Of a stretch of DNA of 16,538 nt, positions 1 to 16,538 are shown piece after piece. The notes beneath the pieces were generated by a model that was not told where the DNA came from, searched no databases, and saw only the letters and a program-made list of their open reading frames with translations. Source of the stretch: Clostridia bacterium (GTDB taxonomy: Bacteria; Bacillota; Clostridia; Christensenellales; Aristaeellaceae). The DNA is taken from positions 1 through 16,538 of the forward strand of contig JAKSQG010000023.1 in NCBI GenBank assembly GCA_024404275.1, read 5' to 3'. Numbering within the stretch: position 1 is the first letter of the stretch; each line of letters begins with the position of its first letter. The position numbers and the translations under genes are program-made.

Positions 1-642
1 GCTCGCCCCGTGACGCTGTCCTTCATGCCGGGACAGGGCTATTCGTACTCGGGCGAGGGGTATTATTACCTTCAGCGCACCATCGAGCACCTTACCGGAA
101 AAACACTTCAGCAGCTGTATGAGCAGTTCATTTTTGAGCCTGCCGGCATGCATCACAGCGCCGTACAATGGCGGGATGAGCTGCGTACGTGCTTTGCTTC
201 CCGGCACGACGAGTCCGGTGTCCTCATGCCCTTCCGCGAGCATCCCGACAACAAAGGCGTCGCGCCATAGCCCAACGCCGCATGGAGCCTGTACACCACC
301 GCATCGGATTACGCCGCCTTCCTGCGCTACTTCCTGCATCAAAAAGGCGGTCTGACCGATCCAACCTTTTCCCTGCTGACCTCGCCGCAAAGCAAGGCGG
401 ATAAAACCGTCTGCTGGGGCATGGGCTTTGGCATGATCGCCCCCGAGCCGGGTCTTCTGTGGCACTGGGGCGACAACAAGGGCTACAAAAATATGATGGC
501 CGCCGATATCGTCTCCGGCTGTGCCATCGTGCTGCTCTCCAACAGCGATGGCGGTCTTGAAGCGGAAATGAACATCCTGCGCCGTCTGACCGACTGCACG
601 CATTGGAATGCCGTTGAAAGCTTTATCCAAACTGCCGAATAA
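1..642 (+). CDS. Serine hydrolase / beta-lactamase-family protein, C-terminal part (5' end lies outside the window), read through an in-frame TAG at 268-270
   Basis: Frame 1 is open from base 1. It carries a YSYSGEGYYYL (YxN-like) motif and a later HWGDNKGY (KTG/HxG-like) motif. ORFs 10..270 and 421..642 share one frame, and the stretch between them translates without stops as PNAAWSLYTTASDYAAFLRYFLHQKGGLTDPTFSLLTSPQSKADKTVCWG, typical of this fold. Final stop is TAA at 640-642. Confidence 0.75.
268..270 (+). other. In-frame TAG inside the serine hydrolase CDS (putative sense/recoded codon)
   Basis: Context is gcg cca TAG ccc aac. Family-like sequence continues in the same frame on both sides. 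Confidence 0.7.
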
Positions 643-702: not shown

Positions 703-2730
703 ATGAGCAAGCGTTCTGTACGCACCATCGTTACCGCCAACGGGCTGGGCAGCATTTATATGTTTATGTTTTCCATGCTGCTCTCCGGTTTTTTGCTGAA
801 AGCGCCGCTGATTGGAGGCGCCCTGGCCATGTGCGGCCATTGCGGCACGATCTTTATGGCTTCCTCTGTCAGCCGTGTGCATCTGCTGAGCAAAAAACAG
901 ACGCGCTTCCAGCAGGTCATTTATCTTCTGCTGCTCGTCATCAATCTGGCGCTGCTGTTCCTATATCCCATGGATGTCCCACGGATCAACGTCTGGATCC
1001 TGTTTTTTGTGCTGCTGTCTCTCACCTTCAGCGGCGGTGCCGCCCGGCAAATGCTGCGCCGCGGCCCGGTACAAAAAGCTCTGCGCCTTCATTTTATTCT
1101 GCAGATCGTCCTTGCCGTATCCGGATCCGCATTGCTGCTCTTCTGGTTCCCGCGCTATCTCTATCTGACCGGCGGCTACTTGCTCGCCTTCGTTCTGCAA
1201 TTGTATGAGTGCTCCGGTCCGCGCAACAGCATCCCGGCTGAAACGCCCGACCTGTCCGATGCGCACAGTGCTTTTCTCAAGGGCAATGTCTTCCGCCTGT
1301 ATGAGACCGCCAGCGTACTCATCACCATGGCCTGTTACATCTCCATCATTCTGGTCTATTGCTCGCTGGCGCTGACAGCGGAAGGTCTCTTCATCTCCAT
1401 GGCCATCGCCTTTGTCACCAACATTCTGTTTGCCGAGGCTGCCGATTATCTGCTCCGCGTGCAGGACAAGCGCAAAGCCATCAAGCCCGACACCGTCATC
1501 ATCTTCAGCCTGCTTTTGTGGCTATGCGGTCTGGTCATGTACAGCCGCTATATCCTGCGCTATGAGCCCAATCTGCTGGCCGTATACTTCGGCATGGGCA
1601 TGTGTTCTGCCGGCATCGCCGTCAGTGTCCGCTGCCTGTCGCAGATGGACCGTGTGGTTCGTCAGGCCGTGCTGCTCAACGCCGAGGCTGCCGCGCCGCA
1701 GTACAGCACGCTGAGCTTCTTTAGAAATGAGACCGCCGCCGCACTCAGTGAAATGGCCGCGCTCATCGTCATCACGCTGCTGTTCACCTTCAATCACGGC
1801 GCTTATTTCCAGCAGCTCTCCGTAGACCGACTGCAGCCCTTCCTGCTGCTGCCGGCGGTACTGCTGCTCATTGCCGCGCTGCTGACCATGCTGCGCTATC
1901 CCGCCACCAATTATTACGCACAAAAGTTAGCGCGTCTGCTGGGACTGCGTGCCTCGGGAAAAGTCAACGATGCCCTCACCCGTCAGGTGGAAAGCATCTT
2001 TGTCGAAGAACGCAAGCGTCCCCTTGGCACCAACATTCTCAAATTCCTGTTCCGTCCCTTCTGCCGTCATAAGCTTTCGGGCACCGAAAACATCCACGAG
2101 GACCCGGATAATCCGTTGGTATTCCTGTGCAACCATGCCTCGGTCTACGGTCCTTTGACCGCCGTGCTGAACATCCCCCAACCCGTTCGTCCCTGGGTCG
2201 TCAGCAACATCGTGGGCACCCCGCAATAGTTTGCCGATTATTTCCTCGAAAACACACTCGGCCCCGCCAAGCATTATCCCGAGCGCCTGAAGCCCGCCAC
2301 CGCGCTGTTTTTGGGCAAGCTCAGCGTATGGTGCATGCATCAGCTTGATTCCATCCCCGTCTACCGCGAAAAGCCCTCGCAGCTGCGTCAGACCTTCCGT
2401 CTTTCCTCCGACGCGCTGGAAAGCGGTGACAACCTGCTCATCTTCCCATAGGATCCCTCCGCGGAGTCTGACGGAGGTTATGTCCTGGAGGGCGTCGGTC
2501 ACCTCTATGAGGGCTTCACCCTGCTGGCGACAGTCTATTACAAGCGCACCGGCAAGTGCTGCCGCTTCCTGCCGATGTTTGCCCACAAGGAAAGCAAGAC
2601 CATCACCTTCGGGCAGGAAATCCGCTACGACCCCTCCCATCCCGACATCGAGGAACGCGAACGCATCTGCCGCGAAGCGGAACAGCAGATGCATGACCTG
2701 TACGAGCGTGCCTGTCGGAAGCATCCATAA
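703..2730 (+). CDS. Fusion protein of about 675 codons: N-terminal polytopic (MFS-like?) membrane domain plus C-terminal divergent PlsC/LPLAT-type acyltransferase domain, read through two in-frame TAGs
   Basis: ATG at 703 follows the RBS AAAGGAG. About 440 aa of repeated hydrophobic segments come first. The acyltransferase blocks are FLCNHASVYGP (an HX4D-like block, but with G where D is expected), SIPVYREK, and LLIFP-[TAG]-DPS at the motif III (FPEG-like) position. The frame stays open and protein-like from 2230 to the TAA at 2728-2730 apart from the TAGs at 2227 and 2449. Confidence 0.75.
2227..2229 (+). other. In-frame TAG number 1 in the acyltransferase CDS (putative sense codon)
   Basis: Context is ccg caa TAG ttt gcc, giving ...VGTPQ-X-FADYFLENTL... 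in the same frame as the ATG at 703. Confidence 0.7.
2449..2451 (+). other. In-frame TAG number 2 in the acyltransferase CDS, at the conserved Glu position of the FPEG-like motif
   Basis: Context is ttc cca TAG gat ccc, giving LLIFP-X-DPSAESDGGY. It is in frame with the start at 703 and the TAA at 2728. Confidence 0.7.
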
Positions 2731-2740
2731 ATCAGCATCA

Positions 2741-2772
2741 AAAAAGCGTCTTCCCTGCGGAAGACGCTTTTT
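2741..2772. terminator. Bidirectional rho-independent terminator between convergent genes
   Basis: AAAAAGCGTCTTCC, loop CTGC, GGAAGACGCTTTTT forms a perfect 14-bp stem with A/T runs on both sides. It sits between the TAA at 2730 (+) and the TAA at 2781 (-). Confidence 0.75.
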
Positions 2773-2780
2773 GATTGTCC

Positions 2781-3638
2781 TTACTTCACGGCGATGGTGC
2801 CGCTCGCAATGCTCTGCGTTCCTTTGCTGTTGACGGTTTTGCCTTCCGCCTCCACATTGATCTGTCCCCCGGTGATGGACAGGTCGGTAGCAGACTGAAT
2901 GCCGTCATCGCCGCTCACAATGGTGATACTGCCGCCGGCAATATACACATAGCCCTTGCCGGCTTTGTTATCCGTATCGGCCTTGATGCCGTCGCCCGCA
3001 GCGTTCAGCACGAGTGTACCATCCTTGATGGACACGGAATCATTGCCCTTCAGGGCATTCTTGGCGGCCACCACGGTGATATTGCCGGAAACAATGTGCA
3101 AATCGTTCTTGGTGCCGATACCGTTGCCCATGTTGCCGTTGACGGTCAGAATGCCGTTGCCGTTGATGCACAAATCATCCTTGGCATAGATGCAGGCATT
3201 GGGCTGCTTGTCCAGTGCCAACGTATACGCAGCGGCGTCCGTCAGCGTGTTGACAGAGCCGTCCGCCAGTGTGATCTTGCACTTATCGGCAGAAACGATA
3301 TAGATGGGGGCGCTGTCAGCGCAGGTGAGTGTCAGACCGTTCAGCACCAGATGCACCTTGGCGTTTTTGTCGACCTCCACCTGAACGCGGCCGTTAGCGC
3401 ATTCGCCGCTGAGCACATAAGTGCCCGCCGCATTGATATACACGGTGGTGCCATCCACAGCAGCGCCGCTGCCATTGACCAGTACGCCATTTTCAGAGAA
3501 GGTAACGGTCACCGCTTCGGTCCAGGAAGCGTCCAGATCATACTTGGTGAAGACATCGGAATAATCCGCCGCCATCGCGGAAGCCAGCATCATAGAAGCC
3601 AGCACAATGCTCAGCAGCAGGCTCATCAGTTTTTTCAT
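2781..3638 (-). CDS. Secreted beta-helix protein, probably a Cthe_2159-like carbohydrate-binding domain protein
   Basis: RBS AAAGGAG lies 7 nt before the ATG. The signal peptide MKKLMSLLLSIVLASMMLASAMA/AD precedes Gly/Asn/Asp-rich repeats (INGNGILTVNGN, ITVVAAKNALKGN, ITIVSGDDGIQS). The family assignment is from memory. Confidence 0.75.
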   Translation of the reverse strand: MKKLMSLLLSIVLASMMLASAMAADYSDVFTKYDLDASWTEAVTVTFSENGVLVNGSGAAVDGTTVYINAAGTYVLSGECANGRVQVEVDKNAKVHLVLNGLTLTCADSAPIYIVSADKCKITLADGSVNTLTDAAAYTLALDKQPNACIYAKDDLCINGNGILTVNGNMGNGIGTKNDLHIVSGNITVVAAKNALKGNDSVSIKDGTLVLNAAGDGIKADTDNKAGKGYVYIAGGSITIVSGDDGIQSATDLSITGGQINVEAEGKTVNSKGTQSIASGTIAVK

Positions 3639-5775: not shown

Positions 5776-5850
5776 TGGAGGCGCAGTCCGGATTCGGACC
5801 GGAGCATAAAGGTTTTGCAGACCTTCGCCTTACCACTTGGCTACTGCGCC
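5776..5850 (-). tRNA. tRNA-Cys (GCA), CCA encoded
   Basis: Hand-folded: acceptor GGCGCAG/CTGCGCC, anticodon arm AAGGT-CTGCAAA-ACCTT, T arm TCCGG-TCCGAAT-CCGGA. The T loop has C where the near-universal U55 is expected. Confidence 0.9.
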
Positions 5851-5858
5851 GAAAAAAA

Positions 5859-5934
5859 TGGAGCGGTAGACGAGGCTCGGACTCGCGACCTCAACCTTGG
5901 CAAGGTTGCGCTCTACCAACTGAGCTACTACCGC
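5859..5934 (-). tRNA. tRNA-Gly (GCC), CCA encoded
   Basis: Acceptor GCGGTAG/CTACCGC, anticodon arm CAACC-TTGCCAA-GGTTG, T arm GCGAG-TCCGAGC-CTCGT. The T loop again has C at the U55 position. Confidence 0.9.
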
Positions 5935-5939
5935 ACACA

Positions 5940-6015
5940 TGGTGCCTTGGGGCGGAATCGAACCACCGACACGCAAATTTTCAGTCTGCTGCTCTACCTA
6001 CTGAGCTACCAAGGC
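5940..6015 (-). tRNA. tRNA-Phe (GAA), CCA encoded
   Basis: Acceptor GCCTTGG/CCAAGGC, anticodon arm GCAGA-CTGAAAA-TTTGC, canonical T loop TTCGATT. Confidence 0.92.
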
Positions 6016-6020
6016 ATATA

Positions 6021-6097
6021 TGGCGACCCGAATGGGGCTCGAACCCATGACCTCCAGCGTGACAGGCTGGCGTTCTAACCAACTGAACTACCGGGCC
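6021..6097 (-). tRNA. tRNA-Asp (GTC), CCA encoded
   Basis: Acceptor GGCCCGG/TCGGGTC with two G-U pairs, anticodon arm CCAGC-CTGTCAC-GCTGG, T loop TTCGAGC. Confidence 0.9.
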
Positions 6098-6105
6098 ACA
6101 ATTTG

Positions 6106-6181
6106 TGGTGGGAACAACAGGGCTCGAACCTGTGACCCTTTGCTTGTAAGGCAAATGCTCTCCCAGCTGAGCTATGCTCCC
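6106..6181 (-). tRNA. tRNA-Val (TAC), CCA encoded
   Basis: Acceptor GGGAGCA/TGTTCCC, anticodon arm TTTGC-CTTACAA-GCAAA, T loop TTCGAGC. Confidence 0.9.
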
Positions 6182-6301: not shown

Positions 6302-6337
6302 ACAAAAATGCAGGGCCCCCCGAAGGGAGCCCTGCAA
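6302..6337 (-). terminator. Rho-independent terminator of the ABC transporter operon
   Basis: Minus strand: TGCAGGGCTCCC-TTCG-GGGGGCCCTGCA followed by TTTTTG, starting 12 nt after the binding-protein TAA. Confidence 0.75.
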
Positions 6338-6348
6338 GGTGCATCGAA

Positions 6349-7371
6349 TTACTTGGTGGTAACGGCGGTGTACAGGGTGTTCCAGTGATCCAGGATCTGA
6401 GCCTTGTTTTCGGTCAGGAACTTGACATCGCGGGTAACCCACTTGATGTCTTCGGTAGCGGGCAGATAGGACTCGGCACCGTACTCGGTGTTCTTGTTGG
6501 TCATACGCAGGGTCTGCAGGCCGGCGGCGATGGTGGTAGAACCTTCCTTGGAGCAGATCCAGTCGATCATGGCCTTGGCGGCGGCTTCGTGCTTGGCGCC
6601 CTTGATCACGGCAGCACCGAAAGCGGAAGCGGAGGAGCCTTCAGCGGGATAGATCATGGCCACGTTGGTAGCGCCCTGCTGCAGCAGCTTGGACACGCCA
6701 TCTTCGTAGGTCAGACCAACCACGTATTCGCCCTTCTGGACGGAGTTGAAGCAGGCAGAGGAGCTTTCGGTGATGACCAGGTTGGGCATCAGCTGCTCGA
6801 TGTAAGCCCAGGCTTCCTCGCTGTCATGTCCGTACACGGCCATGATGTTGCACAGGTTGTTCCAGGCAGAGGAGGAGGAGTTGGGGTTGGCCAGCAGGAT
6901 CTGACCCTTCAGGGCGGGAGTCAGCAGGTCAGCATAGCCCTTGATGTCCAGGCCCAGCTGAGCAGCCAGCTCGGTGTTGACGCAGAACACGACGGTGGAC
7001 AGATGGTCCATGGAGTAGAAGCCGTTGTCGCAGGCATAGCCTTCGATGGCTTCGGCGGAGTACTCAGACACCCAGTGCTCGAACAGATCAGAGTAGTTCA
7101 TGCCGTCGGAGTCGCACAGGCCGCCCCAAACCAGGTCGCCCTGGGGGTTGGCAGCTTCAGCGGCGATACGGCCAACGGTCTCACCGATCTTGCCGTACAC
7201 GGTCTCGACTTCGATGTCAGGATACACCTCGGCAAAGCCGTCCAGCATCACGTCCAGGTCGGTCTGAGTCATGGTGGTGTACAGGATCAGGGTATTGCCC
7301 AGATCTTCGGCGATGGCAGTGCAGCCAAGCGCCATCATGGCAACCAGAAGCAGCGCGAGGAACTTTTTCAT
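6349..7371 (-). CDS. ABC transporter substrate-binding protein (Fe3+/Fbp-like family 1 SBP), probable lipoprotein
   Basis: 340 aa. ATG at 7371 follows the RBS GGAAAGGAG. The signal sequence MKKFLALLLVAMMALGC has a lipobox-like ALGC. The sequence looks like a periplasmic-binding fold, and the gene lies downstream of the permease and ATPase. The substrate is not determinable from sequence. Confidence 0.8.
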   Translation of the reverse strand: MKKFLALLLVAMMALGCTAIAEDLGNTLILYTTMTQTDLDVMLDGFAEVYPDIEVETVYGKIGETVGRIAAEAANPQGDLVWGGLCDSDGMNYSDLFEHWVSEYSAEAIEGYACDNGFYSMDHLSTVVFCVNTELAAQLGLDIKGYADLLTPALKGQILLANPNSSSSAWNNLCNIMAVYGHDSEEAWAYIEQLMPNLVITESSSACFNSVQKGEYVVGLTYEDGVSKLLQQGATNVAMIYPAEGSSASAFGAAVIKGAKHEAAAKAMIDWICSKEGSTTIAAGLQTLRMTNKNTEYGAESYLPATEDIKWVTRDVKFLTENKAQILDHWNTLYTAVTTK

Positions 7372-7442
7372 AGGGGTAACTCTCCTTTCCTTAATAGGAA
7401 AATATTCCTTAATGCGGATGCTCTCCGCATAAAGTACAGGTT

Positions 7443-9104
7443 TTACATGCGGATGTCTTCGGACTTGCTGATGGCAAGGTAGGCAACCAGCACCAGGGTG
7501 GTGACCGCCGTCAGAATGGAGGCAAAGGCACACGCAGGGCCATAGCTGCCGTTGCTGATGGCGATGTAGGTGGACATGGTCAGGTTGATGGTCTTGTTGT
7601 TGTACAGCATGATGCTGCTGGACAGTTCGGTCACGATGGAGACCCAGCTCAGCACGGCGCCGGAAAGGATGCCGCTGGACATCATGGGCACCGTCACCTT
7701 GATGAAGGTCTTGAGTTTGGAACTGCCCAGGGATATGGCGGCTTCCTCTGTACTGATGGGGATCTGCATCAGCGTTGCGGTCGCCGATCGTATCGTATAG
7801 GGCATTCTTCGTATGACCATCGACAAGATCATGATCAGCATGGTGCCGGTCAGACCGAAGGGAGCGGGACCAAAGGACATGATGAGCGCGATACCGATGA
7901 CGGAACCGGGCATGATGTAGGGCAGCATCGACATGGTATCGATGGTGTTGTTCATCATGCTGCGGCGGCGCACCACCAGGTAGGCGATCAGAATGGCAAA
8001 GATAATGATAATGGCCAGAGCCGCAATGGACTGGTACAGCGTGTTGGTGATGGAGCGGCCCAGCAGCAAGCGCTTTTTGCTGATAATGGTCTCATAGTTG
8101 ACCAGCGAGAAGCCATCCTTGAACACCATGCCGTTCACGTTGCGGAAGGACAGGTAGATGATGTACACCTGAGGCAGGAAAGCGATGGCGCACAGACCGT
8201 AGCAGTACACATACATCAGCACACCGGCAATGCCCTTGGGCTTTTTCTTTTCAACGGGGTGCAGGCTGTTGATGGAGAACTTGTACTTGCCGGTCGCCCA
8301 CTTCTGGAAGAAGAACACCACGGCGGTGACCAGAATGGCGATGACGGAGATAGCAGCGGCAAAGTTGTGGTTGGTGCCGTTTTCACCCAGGTACTGGCTG
8401 TAGATCTCGACGGGGAAGGTACGATAGCCTTCACCGATCAAAAGGGGCGTACCGAAGTCGGCAATGGCACGCATGAAAACGATCAGCGCCGCCGCCAGAA
8501 TGGTGGGCATCGACAGGTTCATCACGATGCGGAAGAAACGCTTCACGCCTGTGCAGCCCATGTTGGCGGAAGCCTCCATCAAGCTGTTGTCGATGTTCTT
8601 GAAGGCACCGTTCATGTAGATGAACACCAGCGGGAACAGCTTCAGGCTCTGCACCAGCGTGATGCCGCCAAAACCGTAGATATTGCCGATATCGATGCCA
8701 AGGTAGTTTTTAAGGAACTGCGTGATCACGCCGGAGCGACCCAGCAGCATGATCCAGGAATAAGCGCCGATGAAGGGGGCGGACATACAGCACAGAATGC
8801 TGATGACAAACAGGAATTTGGCACCCTTCAGCCGGTAGAAGCTGTAGAAGTACGAGAAGGGAATACCGATCAGCAGTGTAACAAGCGTAACGACCAGCGT
8901 CACCTTGGCGCTGTTGGTAATGGTAATGGTGTAGTAGGGGTTGGAGAAGAATTTGGTAAACTGTGCCAGAGACAGTTCGCCCTGATCACTGTAGACCGAC
9001 TGGCGCAGAATGCCAAACAGCGGATAGATCAGGATCAGCAGGAACAGCAGAAGGAAGAAGACCGAAATGACCGACCAGACATCGCGTTTTTTTCTTTCCA
9101 TCAT
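7443..9104 (-). CDS. ABC transporter permease, fused double-domain type (FbpB/ThiP-like)
   Basis: 553 aa and about 12 TM segments in two homologous halves. The RBS GGAGG precedes ATGATG at 9104. Stop is TAA. Confidence 0.85.
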   Translation of the reverse strand: MMERKKRDVWSVISVFFLLLFLLILIYPLFGILRQSVYSDQGELSLAQFTKFFSNPYYTITITNSAKVTLVVTLVTLLIGIPFSYFYSFYRLKGAKFLFVISILCCMSAPFIGAYSWIMLLGRSGVITQFLKNYLGIDIGNIYGFGGITLVQSLKLFPLVFIYMNGAFKNIDNSLMEASANMGCTGVKRFFRIVMNLSMPTILAAALIVFMRAIADFGTPLLIGEGYRTFPVEIYSQYLGENGTNHNFAAAISVIAILVTAVVFFFQKWATGKYKFSINSLHPVEKKKPKGIAGVLMYVYCYGLCAIAFLPQVYIIYLSFRNVNGMVFKDGFSLVNYETIISKKRLLLGRSITNTLYQSIAALAIIIIFAILIAYLVVRRRSMMNNTIDTMSMLPYIMPGSVIGIALIMSFGPAPFGLTGTMLIMILSMVIRRMPYTIRSATATLMQIPISTEEAAISLGSSKLKTFIKVTVPMMSSGILSGAVLSWVSIVTELSSSIMLYNNKTINLTMSTYIAISNGSYGPACAFASILTAVTTLVLVAYLAISKSEDIRM

Positions 9105-9122
9105 TTACCTCCGCGCCGTCTG

Positions 9123-10238
9123 TCAGCGGATCAGGTCGTTGACAACGCCGGTCAGCAGGTTATCGGTGCCTTCGGCATTGAACAGGTTGACCTTGTCGGT
9201 ATTGATGTTGAGCGAGATCTCGGCGCCGGGGGTCAGGGTGTCCTCAATGGTGGACTCCTGAATGATCTACGCTTCCTCGCCGGTCTCCATGGTAACAAAG
9301 TAGTGGGTGTTGAGTCCGAGGAACACGGCGTCATCCACCTTGGCGCGGATCAGACCCGCGGAAGCGTCACGGCTGAGCAGCAGCTCTTCGGGACGCAGGG
9401 AGATAATCACATCCTGCTCCTTGGCGCATTCGGGGCGCACGTTATGGATGGCCACCTTGTTGCCGTTGGGCAGCACCACCATGGTCTGACCGTTTTCGAT
9501 GACCATCTTGCCCTGCATTTGGTTGGAGCGGCCGATAAAGTTGGCCACAAACAGGTTGGCGGGGCGCTGATAGAGGTTTTTGGGCGTGCCCACATGCTGA
9601 ATGACGCCGCCGTTCATAACGGCAATGCGGTCGGATACCGCCATGGCTTCTTCCTGATCGTGGGTAACATACACGGTGGTGATGCCGACATCGTGCTGGA
9701 TGTGCTTGATGACGGTACGCATCTCCACGCGCAGCTTGGCGTCCAGGTTGGAAAGAGGTTCATCCATCAGCAGCACCTGCGGCTCAATGCACAGGGCACG
9801 GGCGAGGGCGACACGCTGCTGCTGACCACCGGACAGGCGATCGGGCATGCGGTCGGCCAGACCGTCGATCTGCATCAGCTTCAGGAAGCGGTCCGCCTGC
9901 GTGTGGATCTGGCTTTTGGGCATATGCTTGTTGGTCAGACCGAATTCCACGTTCTTGCGCACGGAATAGTGCGGAAATACGGCATAATTCTGGAATACCA
10001 TACCAATGTTGCGGCGGGAAGGATCGAGATCGTTGATGCGGGTCTCGTTAAAATAAAAATCGCCGCCCTCGATGCTGTTAAAACCGGCAATCATGCGCAG
10101 CAGCGTGGTCTTGCCGCAGCCGGAAGGTCCGAGCAGTGTGAAGAATTCGCCCTCACGGATATCCAGGTTCAGATCGGGAATGATCACATTGCTGCCATAT
10201 TTTTTCAGCGCGTGCTGAATGCGGATATTGACGCTCAT
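9123..10238 (-). CDS. ABC transporter ATP-binding protein (PotA/FbpC-like) with C-terminal TOBE-like domain, read through an in-frame TAG
   Basis: ATG at 10238 follows the RBS AAGGAG. Walker A is GPSGCGKTT, the signature is LSGGQQQRVALARAL, and Walker B is LLMDEPLSNLD. After the TAG (9267-9269) the same frame reads IIQESTIEDTLTPGAEISLNINTDKVNLFNAEGTDNLLTGVVNDLIR and ends at TGA 9123-9125. This gives a normal length of about 371 codons and leaves an 18-nt gap before the permease start. Confidence 0.8.
9267..9269 (-). other. In-frame TAG in the ABC ATPase CDS (putative sense codon)
   Basis: Minus-strand context is gaa gcg TAG atc att, giving ...METGEEA-X-IIQEST... Confidence 0.7.
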
Positions 10239-10307
10239 AGCCGTATACTCCTTTTTTATGGACGTTTCACCGTGAAATGCTTTAAAATTGCGAACATGGA
10301 TGCTTAA

Positions 10308-10336
10308 ATAGTAGCATTCATTTACCATTTTGTCAA
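10308..10336 (-). promoter_or_regulatory. Promoter of the ABC transporter operon
   Basis: Minus strand: TTGACA (10331-10336), a 17-nt spacer, then TACTAT (10308-10313), about 65 nt upstream of the ATPase ATG. Confidence 0.55.
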
Positions 10337-10441: not shown

Positions 10442-11473
10442 ATGACAAAAAAGATATTGCTGATCTACACCGGAGGCACCATCGGCATGACCGCCACCGC
10501 AAACGGCTACGCGCCGCAGAAGGAAGCGTTTCATCAGCTGCTCCACAGCATGCCGGGGCTCAATGCCGATGTAATGCCCGAATGGGATATTATCGATATG
10601 GACCCGCTGCTCGATTCCGCCAATATGACGGCGCACGAGTGGAACAAGATCGGCGGCATGATCGCCGACCATTACGAAGCCTATGACGGCTTTGTGGTGC
10701 TGCATGGCACCGATACCATGGCGTATACCGCCTCCGCCCTGTCCTTTATGCTGGAAAACTGCCGCAAGCCCGTTGTGCTGACAGGCGCGCAGATTCCCCT
10801 GTGCGAGGTGCGCAGCGATGCTCGCGACAACCTGCTCACCGCCATGCTGATCGCCGGCGAAGGCGTGGTCAAAGAGGTCTGCCTGTACTTCGGCGGCAGC
10901 CTGCTGCGCGGCAACCGCGCCACCAAATTCTCCTCCGATGGGCTCATCGCCTTCATCTCCCCCAACTATCCGCTGTTGGCGGAAGCCGGCATCAGCATCA
11001 AATACAACACTTCGGCACTGCTCAAGCCCCAGCGCGGTCCCTTCCGTCTGCGCCGCATGGACGATGTGCCCATCGGCGTACTCAAGATTTTCCCGGGCAT
11101 CCAGTTTGAGCTGTTTGAAGCCATCATGACTGAAAAACTGCGCGGCATCGTCATCGAGACGTTCGGCGCCGGCAACATTCCCGGCAGCGGCACGGCATTG
11201 CTGCCCATCATCCGCCGCGCCTACGCCAACGGCACCGTGCTGACCGTCTGCTCCCAGTGCCCGCAAGGCGCGGTCGCCCTCGGCGCGTATGAGACCAGCA
11301 CAGCGCTCAAAAACGCGGGTGCTGTCAGCGGCTATGACATCACCACCGAGGCGGCGGTGACCAAGCTCTACTATCTTTTCAGCTGCGGTTTTGATACCGA
11401 CAGCGTCAAGCATCTGATGGAAAGCAATCTGCGCGGGGAGATGACCCGCCGCGACGCTTCGGAGGAAAAATGA
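10442..11473 (+). CDS. ansA: L-asparaginase, type I (cytoplasmic)
   Basis: 343 aa. The catalytic motifs [11 protein letters not shown] and [10 protein letters not shown] are present. The TGA stop overlaps the uvrA ATG (ATGA). Confidence 0.88.
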
Positions 11474-14304
11474 ACGACTCCATTATCGTAAAAGGTGCCC
11501 GGCAGCACAACCTCAAAAACGTCTCCGTCACGCTGCCTCGCAACAAGCTGATCGTTTTCACCGGTCTGTCGGGCAGCGGCAAAAGCAGCCTTGCCTTTGA
11601 TACCATTTATGCCGAGGGACAGCGCCGCTATGTGGAAAGCATGTCCTCCTATGCCCGTCAGTTTCTGGGGCAGATGGACAAGCCCGAGGTCGACTCCATC
11701 GAGGGGCTTTCCCCCGCCATCTCCATCGATCAGAAAACAACTGCCCGCAACCCGCGTTCCACCGTGGGCACCGTGACCGAGATCCACGATTATTTAAGGC
11801 TTCTGTACGCCCGCACAGGCATTCCGCACTGCCCCACCTGCAGACGGTAGATCCGCCGTCAGAGCGTGGATGAAATCGTGGAGACCGTTCTTTCCTGGCC
11901 GCAGGGCTCAAGGCTTTTGCTGCTCTCCCCCGTGGTGCGTGCCCGTAAGGGTGAACACATCAAGCTGCTGGAGCAGGCGCTGAAGGACGGCTTCCTGCGT
12001 GTGCGCATCGACGGCGAAATGTACGAGCTGGATGATCCGCCCAAGCTGGACAAGCAGAAGAAGCACACCATCGAGATCGTGGTGGACCGCCTCATCCTGC
12101 GCCCCGATATCCGTCAGCGCCTGACCGACAGCATCGAAACTGCCATGAAGCAGAGCGGCGGTCTTGTCACCGTCATGCTGGCGGACGGCAGCATGGAAAC
12201 GCAGTTTTCCCAGAATTACGCCTGTCCCGAATGCGGCGTCAACATCGAAGAACTGACGCCCCGCATGTTTTCCTTCAACAATCCCTACGGCGCCTGCCCG
12301 CATTGCAGCGGTCTGGGCGTGATGATGAAGATCAGCGAGGACCTGTGCATCCCCGACCGCAGCCTGTCTCTGGCACAGGGAGCCGTCAGCTGCATGGGCT
12401 GGAGCAGCGGCAGCGAAAGCAGCATGGCCGCGGGCATGTTCCGCGGTCTGGCGGAGCGCTACGGCTTCAGCATGGATACGCCTGTGCGCGACCTGCCCCC
12501 CAAGGCGCTCGAGGTCATCCTGTACGGCACCAATGGCGAAAAGATCGATGTCAGCTACGATTCCATCCACGGTCACGGCGTGTACAAGACCGCCTTTGAG
12601 GGCGTCATTCCCTCCATGGAGCGCCGCTACCGTGAAACGCAGAGCGACAGCATGAAGGCGGTCTACGAAGAGTACATGACCACCATGCCCTGCCCCGAAT
12701 GTCACGGCATGCGCCTCAAAAAGGAAGCGCTCGCCGTCACGGTGGGCGGCAAAAACCTTGCCGAACTCAGCGATATGAACATCCGCAAGGCCCGTGATTT
12801 TCTGACCGCACTGGAGCTGGATGCCACCCGCACCATGATCGCGGGACCTATCCTCCGCGAGGTGGACAGCCGTCTGGGCTTCTTGTGCAACGTGGGTCTG
12901 GAATACCTGACGCTCTCCCGCGGCGCTGCCACCCTTTCGGGCGGTGAGGCGCAGCGCATCCGCCTTGCCACGCAGATCGGCAGCGGCCTCATGGGTGTAC
13001 TGTATATTTTGGATGAGCCCAGCATCGGTCTGCATCAGCGCGACAACGCCCGCCTGCTGGCCACCATGCAGCGGCTGCGTGATCTTGGCAATACGCTCAT
13101 CGTGGTCGAACACGATGAAGAGACTCTCCGTTCCGCCGATTATGTGGTGGATATCGGTCCGGGGGCGGGCATCCACGGCGGCAACATCGTCGCCGCAGGT
13201 ACGGTCGAGGAGATCATGAACACCCCCGGCTCCATCACCGGCGATTATCTGGCAGGACGCCGCGTCATCGCCGTACCCGAAACCCACCGCGTTCCCACCG
13301 GCTGGCTGACCGTCCGCGGTGCCCGCGAACACAACCTCAAAAACATCGATGCCGCCTTCCCGCTGGGCGTTTTCTGCTGCGTAACGGGCGTTTCCGGCAG
13401 CGGCAAGAGCAGTCTGGTCAATGCCATCGTGCACAAAACGCTGGCAAGGGATCTGAACCGTGCCCGTACTGTGCCCGGCGAATGCGACGGCATCGAGGGC
13501 ATGGACCGGCTGGATAAGATTATCTGCATCGATCAGAGCCCCATCGGGCGCAGCCCGCGCAGCAACCCCGCCACCTATACCGGCTTGTTCGATATCATCC
13601 GCAAGGTGTTTGCGCAAACGCCCGAAGCCAAGGTCCGCGGCTACAAGGAGAACCGCTTCTCCTTCAACGTCAAGGGCGGCCGCTGCGAAGCCTGCTCCGG
13701 CGATGGCGTGCTCAAGATCGAAATGCACTTCATGCCCGATCTGTATGTGCCCTGCGAGGTCTGCGGCGGCAAACGCTATAATTATGAAACGCTGCAGGTC
13801 AAATACCGCGGCTACAGCATCTCGGACATATTGGAAATGACCATCGAGGACGCCATGGGCGTGTTTGAAGCCTTCCCGCAGATCATGTCCCGTCTCAAAA
13901 CGCTCAGCGAGGTCGGTCTCGGGTACATCAAGCTCGGTCAGCCCGCCACCACCCTGTCGGGCGGCGAGGCGCAGCGTGTCAAGCTGGCGACCGAACTGAG
14001 CCGCCGCACCACGGGACGCACACTCATCCTGCTGGATGAGCCCACCACGGGACTTCACACCGATGACGTCAGCCGCCTCATCCACATTCTGCAGCGTCTG
14101 ACCGATGCGGGCAACACCGTGCTGGTCATTGAGCACAACCTGGATGTCATCAAAACCGCCGACTATGTGCTCGACCTCGGTCCCGAGGGCGGCGACAAGG
14201 GCGGTCAGATCGTCGCCGCGGGCACGCCCGAGCAGGTAGCGGCTGTCGAAGGCAGCTACACCGGTCAGTACCTCAAAAAGATCGGCATCACACCTCAGGC
14301 ATAA
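11470..14304 (+). CDS. uvrA: Excinuclease ABC subunit A, full length (944 codons), read through an in-frame TAG
   Basis: Two Walker A motifs ([20 protein letters not shown]), two signatures ([24 protein letters not shown]) and Zn-finger Cys clusters are present. ORFs 11470..11850 and 11866..14304 share one frame, and the junction ...[25 protein letters not shown]... is colinear with known UvrA proteins. Stop is TAA. Confidence 0.92.
11848..11850 (+). other. In-frame TAG in uvrA (putative sense codon)
   Basis: Context is aga cgg TAG atc cgc. The UvrA sequence is uninterrupted on both sides. Confidence 0.75.
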
Positions 14305-14345
14305 TGGTTTCATCAGAATAACCAACAACAGAAAGGGCAATCATC

Positions 14346-15318: not shown

Positions 15319-15645
15319 ATGAAAGAAGGGAGGGCCATGCTGTATCTCGGCTGGATCGCGGCGGCGTTCATGGCAGGCGTCATCGTTTCGCAGCGACGCC
15401 GCAATCATCGACCCGGGCTGCGTGAACGCAGCGAATCAACAGATTCCTTCGCGGGGCTGAAATATGACGAGGTCGCCGAGCACTTCGGCAGTTTGCCGTG
15501 CATGACCGTGCGGCGTGCAAACGGCACCGTGCTGCATCGGTGGCAGCAGGGCAGATATGCCATTGCGCTGCTGTTTGATTCCGCCTCCGTCTGCCTCGGC
15601 GTGGAAGAAGAAAAAACACAAACAAGAAAGGAACCCCATGTATGA
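15319..15645 (+). CDS. Small hypothetical membrane protein (start uncertain: 15319 or 15337)
   Basis: The RBS AAGGA lies 7 nt before the ATG at 15319, and a GGGAGGG lies just before the alternative ATG at 15337. The N-terminal TM is LYLGWIAAAFMAGVIV. The TGA stop overlaps the next ATG (ATGA). Confidence 0.55.
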   Translation: MKEGRAMLYLGWIAAAFMAGVIVSQRRRNHRPGLRERSESTDSFAGLKYDEVAEHFGSLPCMTVRRANGTVLHRWQQGRYAIALLFDSASVCLGVEEEKTQTRKEPHV

Positions 15646-16337
15646 ACTATGATCTGATTGACAAACTCAAATCCCTGTGGAGTAGGCGGCTGATTAAACC
15701 GCTTCAGCGGAACGGCGTGCCCTACAGCATCACGGAGCTGTTGCAAGAAACCGGACCGTTTGCACTTGCTTCCGGTCTTCTTCTGCTGCTTTCCTTCATT
15801 GCCATGCTGCGCAGCAAAAAGACGCACAGCGGCGCTTCCAGATGCTTCACCATCCTGTTTGGTCTGGGAGCGATCCTTTCCGCGGTCGTCTGGGGCATGT
15901 TCTGGTACTCCCTGAGCACAAAGGCATGGCTGGTCATCGGTATGGTCGCCCTTCTCGCGCTCATTTTTATGGTGATTTCCTGCAAAAAGAAGTCTGACAC
16001 CGACAAAAGCGAAAGCATCACCGCCGCTTCCGCCGCAGCTTCTTCCGCTGCTCATGCCGTCGGCGATACGCTGAAAGCAACCGCGGCTTCCGCAACCGCT
16101 GTCGCTAAATCGGGCATCTCTTCCTTTAAAGCCACCATGGAACAGGCGATCGCGGACAGCAACGTCGAGATCGCCGGTGTGATGGGCTATGAAAACGATG
16201 AAAGTGATGCCGCTGCCTTTGTACAGGATGATGAAGCCCTTGCTTCCATCAAGGCGCTGTTCGAACTCAAGCAGCAAAAGATCATCACCGAAGCCGAGTT
16301 TGAAGCAAAAAAAGTCGAACTGCTGAACCGCATCTGA
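15642..16337 (+). CDS. Membrane protein with C-terminal SHOCT-like domain
   Basis: 231 aa with about 3 TM segments, an Ala/Ser-rich linker and a C-terminus IKALFELKQQKIITEAEFEAKKVELLNRI that matches the SHOCT pattern. It is translationally coupled to the upstream ORF. Confidence 0.7.
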   Translation: MNYDLIDKLKSLWSRRLIKPLQRNGVPYSITELLQETGPFALASGLLLLLSFIAMLRSKKTHSGASRCFTILFGLGAILSAVVWGMFWYSLSTKAWLVIGMVALLALIFMVISCKKKSDTDKSESITAASAAASSAAHAVGDTLKATAASATAVAKSGISSFKATMEQAIADSNVEIAGVMGYENDESDAAAFVQDDEALASIKALFELKQQKIITEAEFEAKKVELLNRI

Positions 16338-16355
16338 TTGACAGGAGGACAAAAC

Positions 16356-16538
16356 ATGTTTGGTATTGTATTGATTTCGATCGTTGCAGCCCTGCTGACC
16401 GGTGCAGCCAAGTGGCGCATTTTTCAAAAGATGGGTTTTGAAGGCTGGAAAAGCCTCATTCCCTTCTACAATGACTATCTGATGTTCAAGGGCGTATACC
16501 ACAAACGGATGCTCTTTTTTTATTCATTTAACAGGTGA
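16356..16538 (+). CDS. Small membrane protein, DUF5684-like N-terminus (60 codons as read)
   Basis: The RBS AGGAGG lies 8 nt before the ATG at 16356. MFGIVLISIVAALLTGAAKWRIFQKMGFEGWKSLIPFYN resembles the KW-IF-K-G-GW--IP-N signature. The TGA falls at the last three bases of the window. Confidence 0.55.
   Translation: MFGIVLISIVAALLTGAAKWRIFQKMGFEGWKSLIPFYNDYLMFKGVYHKRMLFFYSFNR

Follow-up and report, generated by a model that had tools for sequence, protein, structure and literature searches.

What does a TAG codon mean when the reading frame, and the homology of its product, carry on beyond it? A gene for an ABC transporter ATPase raises this question. It lies on the minus strand of a 16,538-nucleotide (nt) stretch of a Clostridia bacterium (contig JAKSQG010000023.1), which we call the window and whose numbering we use throughout. 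In-frame TAG codons at glutamate positions recur in the window and in related contigs, which speaks for a change in the meaning of TAG across the lineage. We consider it likely, on a provisional reading of the sequences compared here, that this lineage translates UAG as an amino acid, most probably glutamate, instead of stopping at it, and that the ATPase gene is intact. We take UAG to stand for Glu because the TAGs are spread over unrelated genes, stand at Glu positions, and exchange with GAG and GAA in both directions. Furthermore, purifying selection downstream of them is normal, and no sampled gene of the lineage ends in TAG, although sister clades use it as a stop.

The lineage sample amounts to about 55 kb of DNA in total. 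The window's proteins are MCQ2453466-73 (locus tags MJ136_) of an NCBI metagenome-assembled genome (MAG) named "Clostridia bacterium." The other lineage loci are L001 (an ENA contig, 96% identical), L002 (NCBI MAG GCA_045599485.1, 89% identical), L092 (a Logan contig, 99.0% identical), and three contigs located through exact look-ups of proteins, namely L089 and L090 on the right side of the window and L091 on its left. Sister clades are represented by L005 (GCA_019423145.1), L007 (ENA ERZ28750540 contig_2305, 22.8 kb), and L009.

An in-frame TAG lies inside the TOBE_2 domain of an ABC transporter ATPase

By translation, Pfam matches (ABC_tran and TOBE_2), and homologues, the ATPase gene (positions 9123 to 10238, minus strand) has 371 codons including the in-frame TAG. 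Its ATG (10238-10236) has an AAAGGAG ribosome-binding site ahead of it. The original prediction held that the ATPase open reading frame (ORF) ends at TAG 9269-9267 and that 47 further in-frame codons run to a TGA 18 nt before the permease gene, and translation confirmed this layout. The TAG is codon 324 (9267 to 9269, minus strand). The 47 codons after it (9126 to 9266, minus strand; IIQESTIEDTLTPGAEISLNINTDKVNLFNAEGTDNLLTGVVNDLIR) encode the last three beta-strands of the TOBE_2/regulatory domain, and the TGA at 9125-9123 is followed by an 18-nt spacer with GGAGG and then by the permease ATG at 9104. With TAG read as E, the flanking residues are TGEEA before and IIQESTIEDTLTPGAEISLNINTDK after. 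Read-through restores normal operon spacing, as had been proposed; if there were none, the gap between ATPase and permease would be 162 nt by our measurement (160 nt in the earlier estimate). A consensus scan found no terminator between the ATPase TAG and the permease start. A run of 47 open codons is not significant by itself (chance of about 0.1).

The tail had also been described as TOBE-like and as divided by the TAG from the nucleotide-binding core. The first part of this description stands, as the tail is homologous and in frame: on the read-through product, Pfam places ABC_tran at residues 22-162 (2.8e-34) and TOBE_2 at residues 279-352 (E = 1.1e-9). The second part does not, because the TOBE_2 match spans the TAG, which sits within that domain at an invariant Glu and not at a boundary between core and tail. 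The product has the full-length ABC_tran core plus TOBE-type beta-domain architecture of the MalK/PotA/FbpC importer ATPases. Homologues from a protein search are 371 to 374 amino acids (aa) long at 75-99% identity; the read-through product aligns with them end to end, and Glu stands at the TAG position in 119 of the 119 that were matched. The alignment extends to known structures, with ATPase residues 3-357 matching AlgS residues 3-358 and solved MalK-type ATPases matching likewise, and in this way the homology proposed for the tail was borne out. In an AlphaFold model, the nucleotide-binding half is poor and the C-terminal beta-domain is confident, with a predicted local distance difference test (pLDDT) score of about 80-92. 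Residue 324 falls in a predicted strand at 322-328 (pLDDT of about 80-90), with two more predicted strands beyond it, and by this model a product truncated at the TAG would lose three strands of the C-terminal beta-fold.

The coding potential ascribed to the tail is likewise visible in its substitutions, which are 10 synonymous to 1 nonsynonymous against L002 and 8 to 0 against L001. From these comparisons, we conclude that the tail is almost certainly translated, which would give a normal 371-aa ATPase and normal operon spacing.

One way to translate it would be programmed read-through specific to this gene, yielding a short and a long ATPase isoform. An in-frame, homologous tail and the restored operon spacing would both suit such an arrangement. 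Nevertheless, we find it barely credible. The site is not conserved even in near-identical strains, codon 324 being GAA in L001 and GAG in both L002 and L092, and the short form would be missing three strands in the middle of the beta-domain. The same event would also be at work in unrelated genes, as 4 of the 12 window genes carry TAGs, and these share no common context. No stimulatory context was found over 11 occurrences at 10 sites, where the base 3' of TAG is A, C, G, or T. The RNA 3' of the ATPase TAG has no significant structure (fold z = -1.44 versus shuffled sequence) and contains no PYLIS-like or SECIS-like element.

TAG occupies glutamate positions in unrelated genes

When neighboring window ORFs were fused by counting TAA and TGA alone as stops, the window contained 5 in-frame TAGs in about 4,900 codons, distributed over the genes for the ATPase, UvrA, a large membrane protein, and a beta-lactamase-family protein. 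TAG makes up about 2% of the Glu codons in the window, or about 1 per 1,000 codons. The window, L001, L002, L089, and L091, which come from five different samples, all carry in-frame TAGs, with 13 unique sites in 7 genes; no TAG site is recorded in L090 and L092, from two further samples. Six of the sites were found in at least two independent assemblies, and those common to assemblies include UvrA codon 127 (window and L002) and two DUF6273 sites (L002 and L089).

The uvrA gene (11470 to 14304, plus strand) has 944 codons by translation, and its homologues are 942 aa long at 81% identity; ordinary gene callers give it as pieces of 126 aa and 812 aa. Its TAG at codon 127 (11848 to 11850, plus strand; CPTCRR#IRRQS, with # for the TAG) is the one also present in L002, and 122 of 122 homologues have Glu there. 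The beta-lactamase-family gene is represented by its 3' part (1 to 642, plus strand; Pfam Beta-lactamase), with a TAA stop; the window edge cuts it, and the full gene is present in L091 and L002. Its in-frame TAG (268 to 270, plus strand) is TAG in L091 and GAG in L002. In the further contigs, in-frame TAGs occur in genes for a DUF6273 repeat protein, a SugB-type sugar permease, and a PfkB kinase, and the extensions after these TAGs are homologous to full-length relatives.

The large membrane protein (703 to 2730, plus strand; 675 aa) has no Pfam match, and its gene ends in a TAA stop followed by a hairpin. It carries two of the window's TAGs. Codon 509 (2227 to 2229, plus strand) is GAG in L001 and GAA in L002, and codon 583 (2449 to 2451, plus strand; IFP#DPS) is TAG in L001 and L091 and GAG in L002. 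Conversely, codon 596 (window positions 2488-2490) is TAG in L002 and L091 and GAG in the window and L001. No single tree fits the TAG patterns of codons 583 and 596 across the window, L001, L002, and L091, which points to recurrent GAG/TAG changes or to recombination between strains. The C-terminal part of this protein is acyltransferase-like in its NHxxxxG and FPE-type motifs, and one TAG takes the place of the Glu in the FPE motif. In addition, at two independent sites a Gln codon directly precedes the TAG; it is CAA next to TAG but CAG in the relative that has a GAG or GAA codon (window positions 2224-2229; L002 codons 638-639). This pairing of CAATAG with CAGGAG could be coincidence or a context preference 5' of TAG.

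Two readings of the interrupted genes were rejected. Split but functional proteins would need a break in seven unrelated genes, each time at a codon for Glu. Contaminating DNA from a ciliate with a UAR-to-Glu code does not agree with bacterial operons, ribosome-binding sites, a tRNA cluster, TAA stops, and proteins 74-81% identical to those of Clostridia MAGs.

TAG exchanges with GAG and GAA, and selection continues downstream

Seven of the eight TAG sites that are informative about the residue align with GAG/GAA or with an invariant Glu. The PfkB site aligns with a Glu in PDB 3kzh, and paralogous DUF6273 repeats have Glu at the position equivalent to their TAG. Judged from substitution frequencies at four-fold sites, GAG accounts for about 13% of the mutational routes into TAG, and the probability of at least 7 Glu among 8 sites is about 4e-6. 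A three-way alignment shows TAG and Glu codons exchanging both ways, L002 having TAG at two membrane-protein codons where the window has GAG/GAA. Over 4,886 aligned codons of the window and L002, there are six differences between TAG and another codon, all of them with GAG or GAA. In the same codons, TAG exchanges with none of CAG (119 codons), AAG, TGG, TAY, TTG, and TCG, and there is no in-frame TAA or TGA and no frameshift. Six GAR/TAG differences (GAR being GAG or GAA) compare with about 11 expected under full neutrality, and they are more than 10 times what ordinary constraint on amino-acid-changing substitutions would permit (a nonsynonymous-to-synonymous rate ratio, dN/dS, near 0.03).

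We also compared dN/dS on the two sides of the TAGs (Nei-Gojobori method, window versus L002). Downstream of the shared uvrA TAG, 817 codons gave a dS of 0.565, a dN of 0.020, and a dN/dS of 0.036, against 0.026 upstream; the ATPase tail gave 0.028 against 0.027 upstream. Values downstream of TAGs range from 0.03 to 0.08, with no relaxation of constraint as in a pseudogene. At the focal site alone this test has low power, the TAG there being very recent. The T at 9269 is 1 of just 31 differences between the window and L092 over 3 kb, and by this comparison the focal TAG is a very recent single G-to-T change in a Glu codon.

Such recency also bears on a strain-specific true nonsense mutation, by which the last 48 ATPase residues would have been lost recently, leaving a fresh pseudogene or a crippled allele. 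This would explain why the window's MAG differs from L092 (GAG), L001 (GAA), and L002 (GAG), and low divergence of the tail could just mean that the mutation is recent. We nevertheless judge it quite improbable. Four other TAGs at Glu positions lie in the same assembly, in strongly constrained genes, and three of them are common to other assemblies; a G-to-T change at an invariant GAG matches the pattern across the lineage; and no disabling mutation of any other type occurs in the 4,886 codons compared with L002. A one-base sequencing or assembly error, such as a G-to-T oxidation artefact in a low-coverage MAG, is very improbable indeed. A single G/T difference from a 99%-identical strain is what such an error would leave, but the error would need to have struck, by chance, the first position of a GAG codon, and the gene would then encode Glu there regardless. 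Moreover, the remaining TAG sites turn up again in independent assemblies, which means that the overall pattern is no artefact.

Stop-codon use in the lineage and its sister clades

Every gene call in the lineage that ends at TAG continues in frame with homologous sequence. None of about 24 solid lineage genes has a TAG stop, compared with 9 of 42 ORFs at sister loci (Fisher p = 0.012), the lineage sample being small. The sister TAG stops include those of an alcohol dehydrogenase in L005 and of the orthologous ATPase in L009. The nearest relatives with the standard code are MAGs labelled Christensenellales, Eubacteriales, or Clostridia, with UvrA 81% and ATPase 74-78% identical.

These counts bear on the chief rival explanation at the level of the whole lineage, a TAG with two meanings. 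In that case an amber-suppressor tRNA would work beside a retained release factor 1 (RF1), read-through would be partial, in-frame TAGs would be mildly harmful polymorphisms, and some TAGs would be stops. Quick turnover of TAG sites would fit, as the window and L002 have just 1 of 7 compared sites in common and 99%-identical strains differ at the focal site. GAR/TAG exchange at about half the neutral expectation would fit as well, and the sample of stop codons is small. Against it stand the lack of a single TAG stop in the genes just counted, in the face of its use in sister clades, and the uvrA TAG, which has been kept across a dS of about 0.5 with full constraint downstream. On balance, we regard a dual meaning as unlikely and favor UAG as a glutamate codon.

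Two sister loci gave observations of their own. In L007, whose UvrA is 81% identical, none of 15 called genes has a TAG stop or is interrupted by a TAG. Avoidance of TAG stops may have preceded the reassignment, or this 0 of 15 may be chance. The dnaE gene of L007 is split into ORFs of 381 aa and 772 aa that are out of frame with each other, probably through an indel error in a long-read assembly. ATPase variants of 323 aa, which is also the length of the window's ORF up to its TAG, occur in the 78% clade (for example, L005 positions 2304-3275), and we considered them as instances of the same truncation. They were rejected because they are frameshift or deletion alleles and do not involve TAG.

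The probable inserted residue and a proposed decoding tRNA

Several points weigh against UAG being read as Glu throughout the lineage. The focal ATPase TAG is seen solely in the window's own assembly, with GAG in the 99%-identical L092, and at this site taken singly the sequence could stem from a mistake in assembly or from a true nonsense mutation of very recent date. Given the roughly 55 kb sampled, TAG could still end some genes and so carry a dual meaning. One TAG site corresponds to Gln in a relative (L089), at a variable repeat position. Finally, no tRNA with a CUA anticodon was found in the window, L001-L008, or L089-L091, where the only tRNAs are the five ordinary ones of a cluster.

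The last two points would agree with TAG being a sense codon for some other residue. It could stand for glutamine, as it does in phage code 15, or for pyrrolysine, or near-cognate reading in a cell without RF1 could give a mixture of residues. Taken together, such readings are improbable in our view. Two of the seven Glu sites are invariant, and no exchange with CAG was seen in the genes shared by the window and L002 despite C-to-T being the commonest change. Nothing related to pyrrolysine occurs in the loci, and the TAGs stand at Glu positions in uvrA, the ABC ATPase, a permease, a kinase, and other genes, which is not the pattern of pyrrolysine.

The tRNA cluster, Val(TAC)-Asp(GTC)-Phe(GAA)-Gly(GCC)-Cys(GCA) (5776 to 6181, minus strand; ARAGORN and Rfam), lies between the ABC operon and a GNAT gene and is conserved in L001 and L002. 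An Rfam search of the window returned these five tRNAs and nothing else. A guess at the suppressor, a tRNA-Glu with an otherwise unchanged anticodon arm (CACCGCCCTCTAACGGCGGT), had one match in a genome collection. It was rejected, as the match falls within coding sequence in an Oscillibacter MAG and does not represent a tRNA. The T-arms of the lineage's own tRNAs are too varied for a generic tRNA pattern.

A proposed route to reassignment

We think it probable, if with less assurance than that UAG is read as Glu, that the reassignment from stop to Glu is complete in these free-living or gut-type Clostridia. It would rest on a dedicated Glu-accepting tRNA(CUA) and the absence of a functional RF1, and it would have been caught early. 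By analogy with known reassignments, the decoder could be a Glu-charged tRNA with anticodon CUA, such as a duplicated tRNA-Glu together with a glutamyl-tRNA synthetase (GluRS) tolerant of anticodon changes, and RF1 would have been lost or else respecialised or narrowed. TAG stops would first have been replaced by TAA and TGA, and TAG would now be re-entering genes from GAG as a minor Glu codon. The fast turnover of TAG sites between close strains and their apparent origin from Glu codons suggest this order, in which TAG first vanished as a stop and now spreads. At codon 324, the recent GAG-to-TAG change would be effectively synonymous, and the ribosome would make a 371-aa ATPase with a complete TOBE-type domain.

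The operon, its surroundings, and the extent of the lineage

The operon continues from the ATPase gene into a gene for a two-domain ABC permease (7443 to 9104, minus strand; two Pfam BPD_transp_1 stretches; NCBI iron ABC transporter permease MCQ2453470.1) and ends with one for a solute-binding protein (6349 to 7371, minus strand; Pfam SBP_bac_8/6/11/1; MCQ2453469.1). Both genes have TAA stops. Consensus scans gave a candidate promoter 5' of the ATPase gene (10308 to 10336, minus strand; TTGACA-17-TACTAT with an upstream TG) and a terminator-like hairpin 3' of the binding-protein gene (6309 to 6336, minus strand; a 12-bp stem and then a T run). Very long antisense ORFs (365-810 aa) lie at 8259-10307 (plus strand), 11908-14340 (minus strand), and 6385-7482 (plus strand); they are by-products of codon bias at 56% G+C and not genes. 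After position 15631 the loci diverge: the window (15632-16538) has a 231-aa membrane protein, L089 (from 1603 onward) and L090 run into a large DUF6273-repeat gene, and L002 has related but rearranged small genes in this region.

The lineage is rare, with few short contigs across ENA, NCBI, and Logan. A scan of a metagenome collection with the ATPase gave no match above 74% identity. As a query for lineage members, the 812-aa UvrA piece found full-length relatives only, at 79-80% identity, and exact look-ups of the 126-aa UvrA piece and of a 508-aa piece of the membrane protein returned no record. The G+C content is about 56%, and the sampled loci give no sign of genome reduction.

Implications and comparison with known genetic codes

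Standard annotation splits or drops genes that bear TAGs, and truncated pieces are present in public protein databases. The NCBI numbering of the window's proteins, from …70 for the permease to …72 for a helix-turn-helix protein, allows one protein for the ATPase, an asparaginase, and UvrA, which suggests that the annotation treats the ATPase and uvrA genes as pseudogenes. If UAG has indeed been completely reassigned to Glu here, the case would have no natural precedent as an amber reassignment in a cellular bacterium or as a bacterial stop-to-Glu code, and it would call for a new code table. It would mean that a bacterium of moderate G+C content, without signs of genome reduction in the loci sampled, can evolve to live without RF1, and that a natural tRNA/GluRS pair decodes amber. 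Exchange between phages and hosts could be affected, as translation would run past the TAG stops of foreign genes. The high turnover of TAG sites among near-identical strains would offer a rare view of codon capture under way.

Phages, archaea (with pyrrolysine), eukaryotes, and engineered E. coli all offer cases of amber reassignment. In bacteria, every known reassignment of a stop codon concerns UGA (PMC8629427), and a 2026 paper on Eggerthellaceae still counts UGA cases only (PMC13462651). A 2026 preprint that screened 2.7 million assemblies gives no bacterial UAG-to-Glu case among those it presents. In the full-text literature, we found no report of a bacterial UAG-to-Glu code and no mention of these assemblies.

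The closest parallels within bacteria are code 4 (UGA to Trp, in Mycoplasmatales, insect endosymbionts, and, as reported in PMC13462651, Eggerthellaceae) and code 25 (UGA to Gly, in Gracilibacteria/Absconditabacteria). These are likewise genome-wide changes from stop to sense within a bacterial clade. As in the lineage described here, apparent stops stand in frame at conserved residues, gene callers split genes, and sister clades keep the standard code. Here, however, the codon is UAG and not UGA, the factor implicated is RF1 and not RF2, and the residue is Glu. The G+C content of about 56% and the lack of signs of genome reduction in the sampled loci set the present case apart as well.

Phage code 15, in which TAG is Gln in crAss-like, Lak, and other gut phages (PMC9523058; bioRxiv 10.1101/2021.08.26.457843), shares the reading of amber as an amino acid, the gut-type setting, and a suppressor tRNA as the expected agent. 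It differs from the present case in that the TAGs here are rare, lie on a bacterial chromosome (with uvrA, an ABC operon, and a tRNA cluster), and correspond to Glu. UAG also means Glu in the eukaryotic UAR-to-Glu codes of peritrich ciliates (code 30) and Blastocrithidia nonstop (PMC12153298). In those nuclear codes, UAA is reassigned as well, whereas TAA is the commonest stop here, and the release-factor and tRNA systems differ.

Archaea in which every TAG is pyrrolysine (bioRxiv 10.1101/2024.09.30.615893) show that a prokaryote can use TAG as a sense codon genome-wide with little effect on coding density, so that automated screens easily miss it, as here. That code requires the pyl gene set and inserts pyrrolysine, unlike the Glu positions seen in this lineage. 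Lastly, the end state that we propose, with no TAG stops, a dispensable RF1, and TAG free for a suppressor tRNA, is that of E. coli C321.deltaA and similar strains engineered to lack RF1 (PMC6207430, PMC11903333). Those strains are man-made, and this lineage, with its proposed loss of RF1, would be their natural equivalent.

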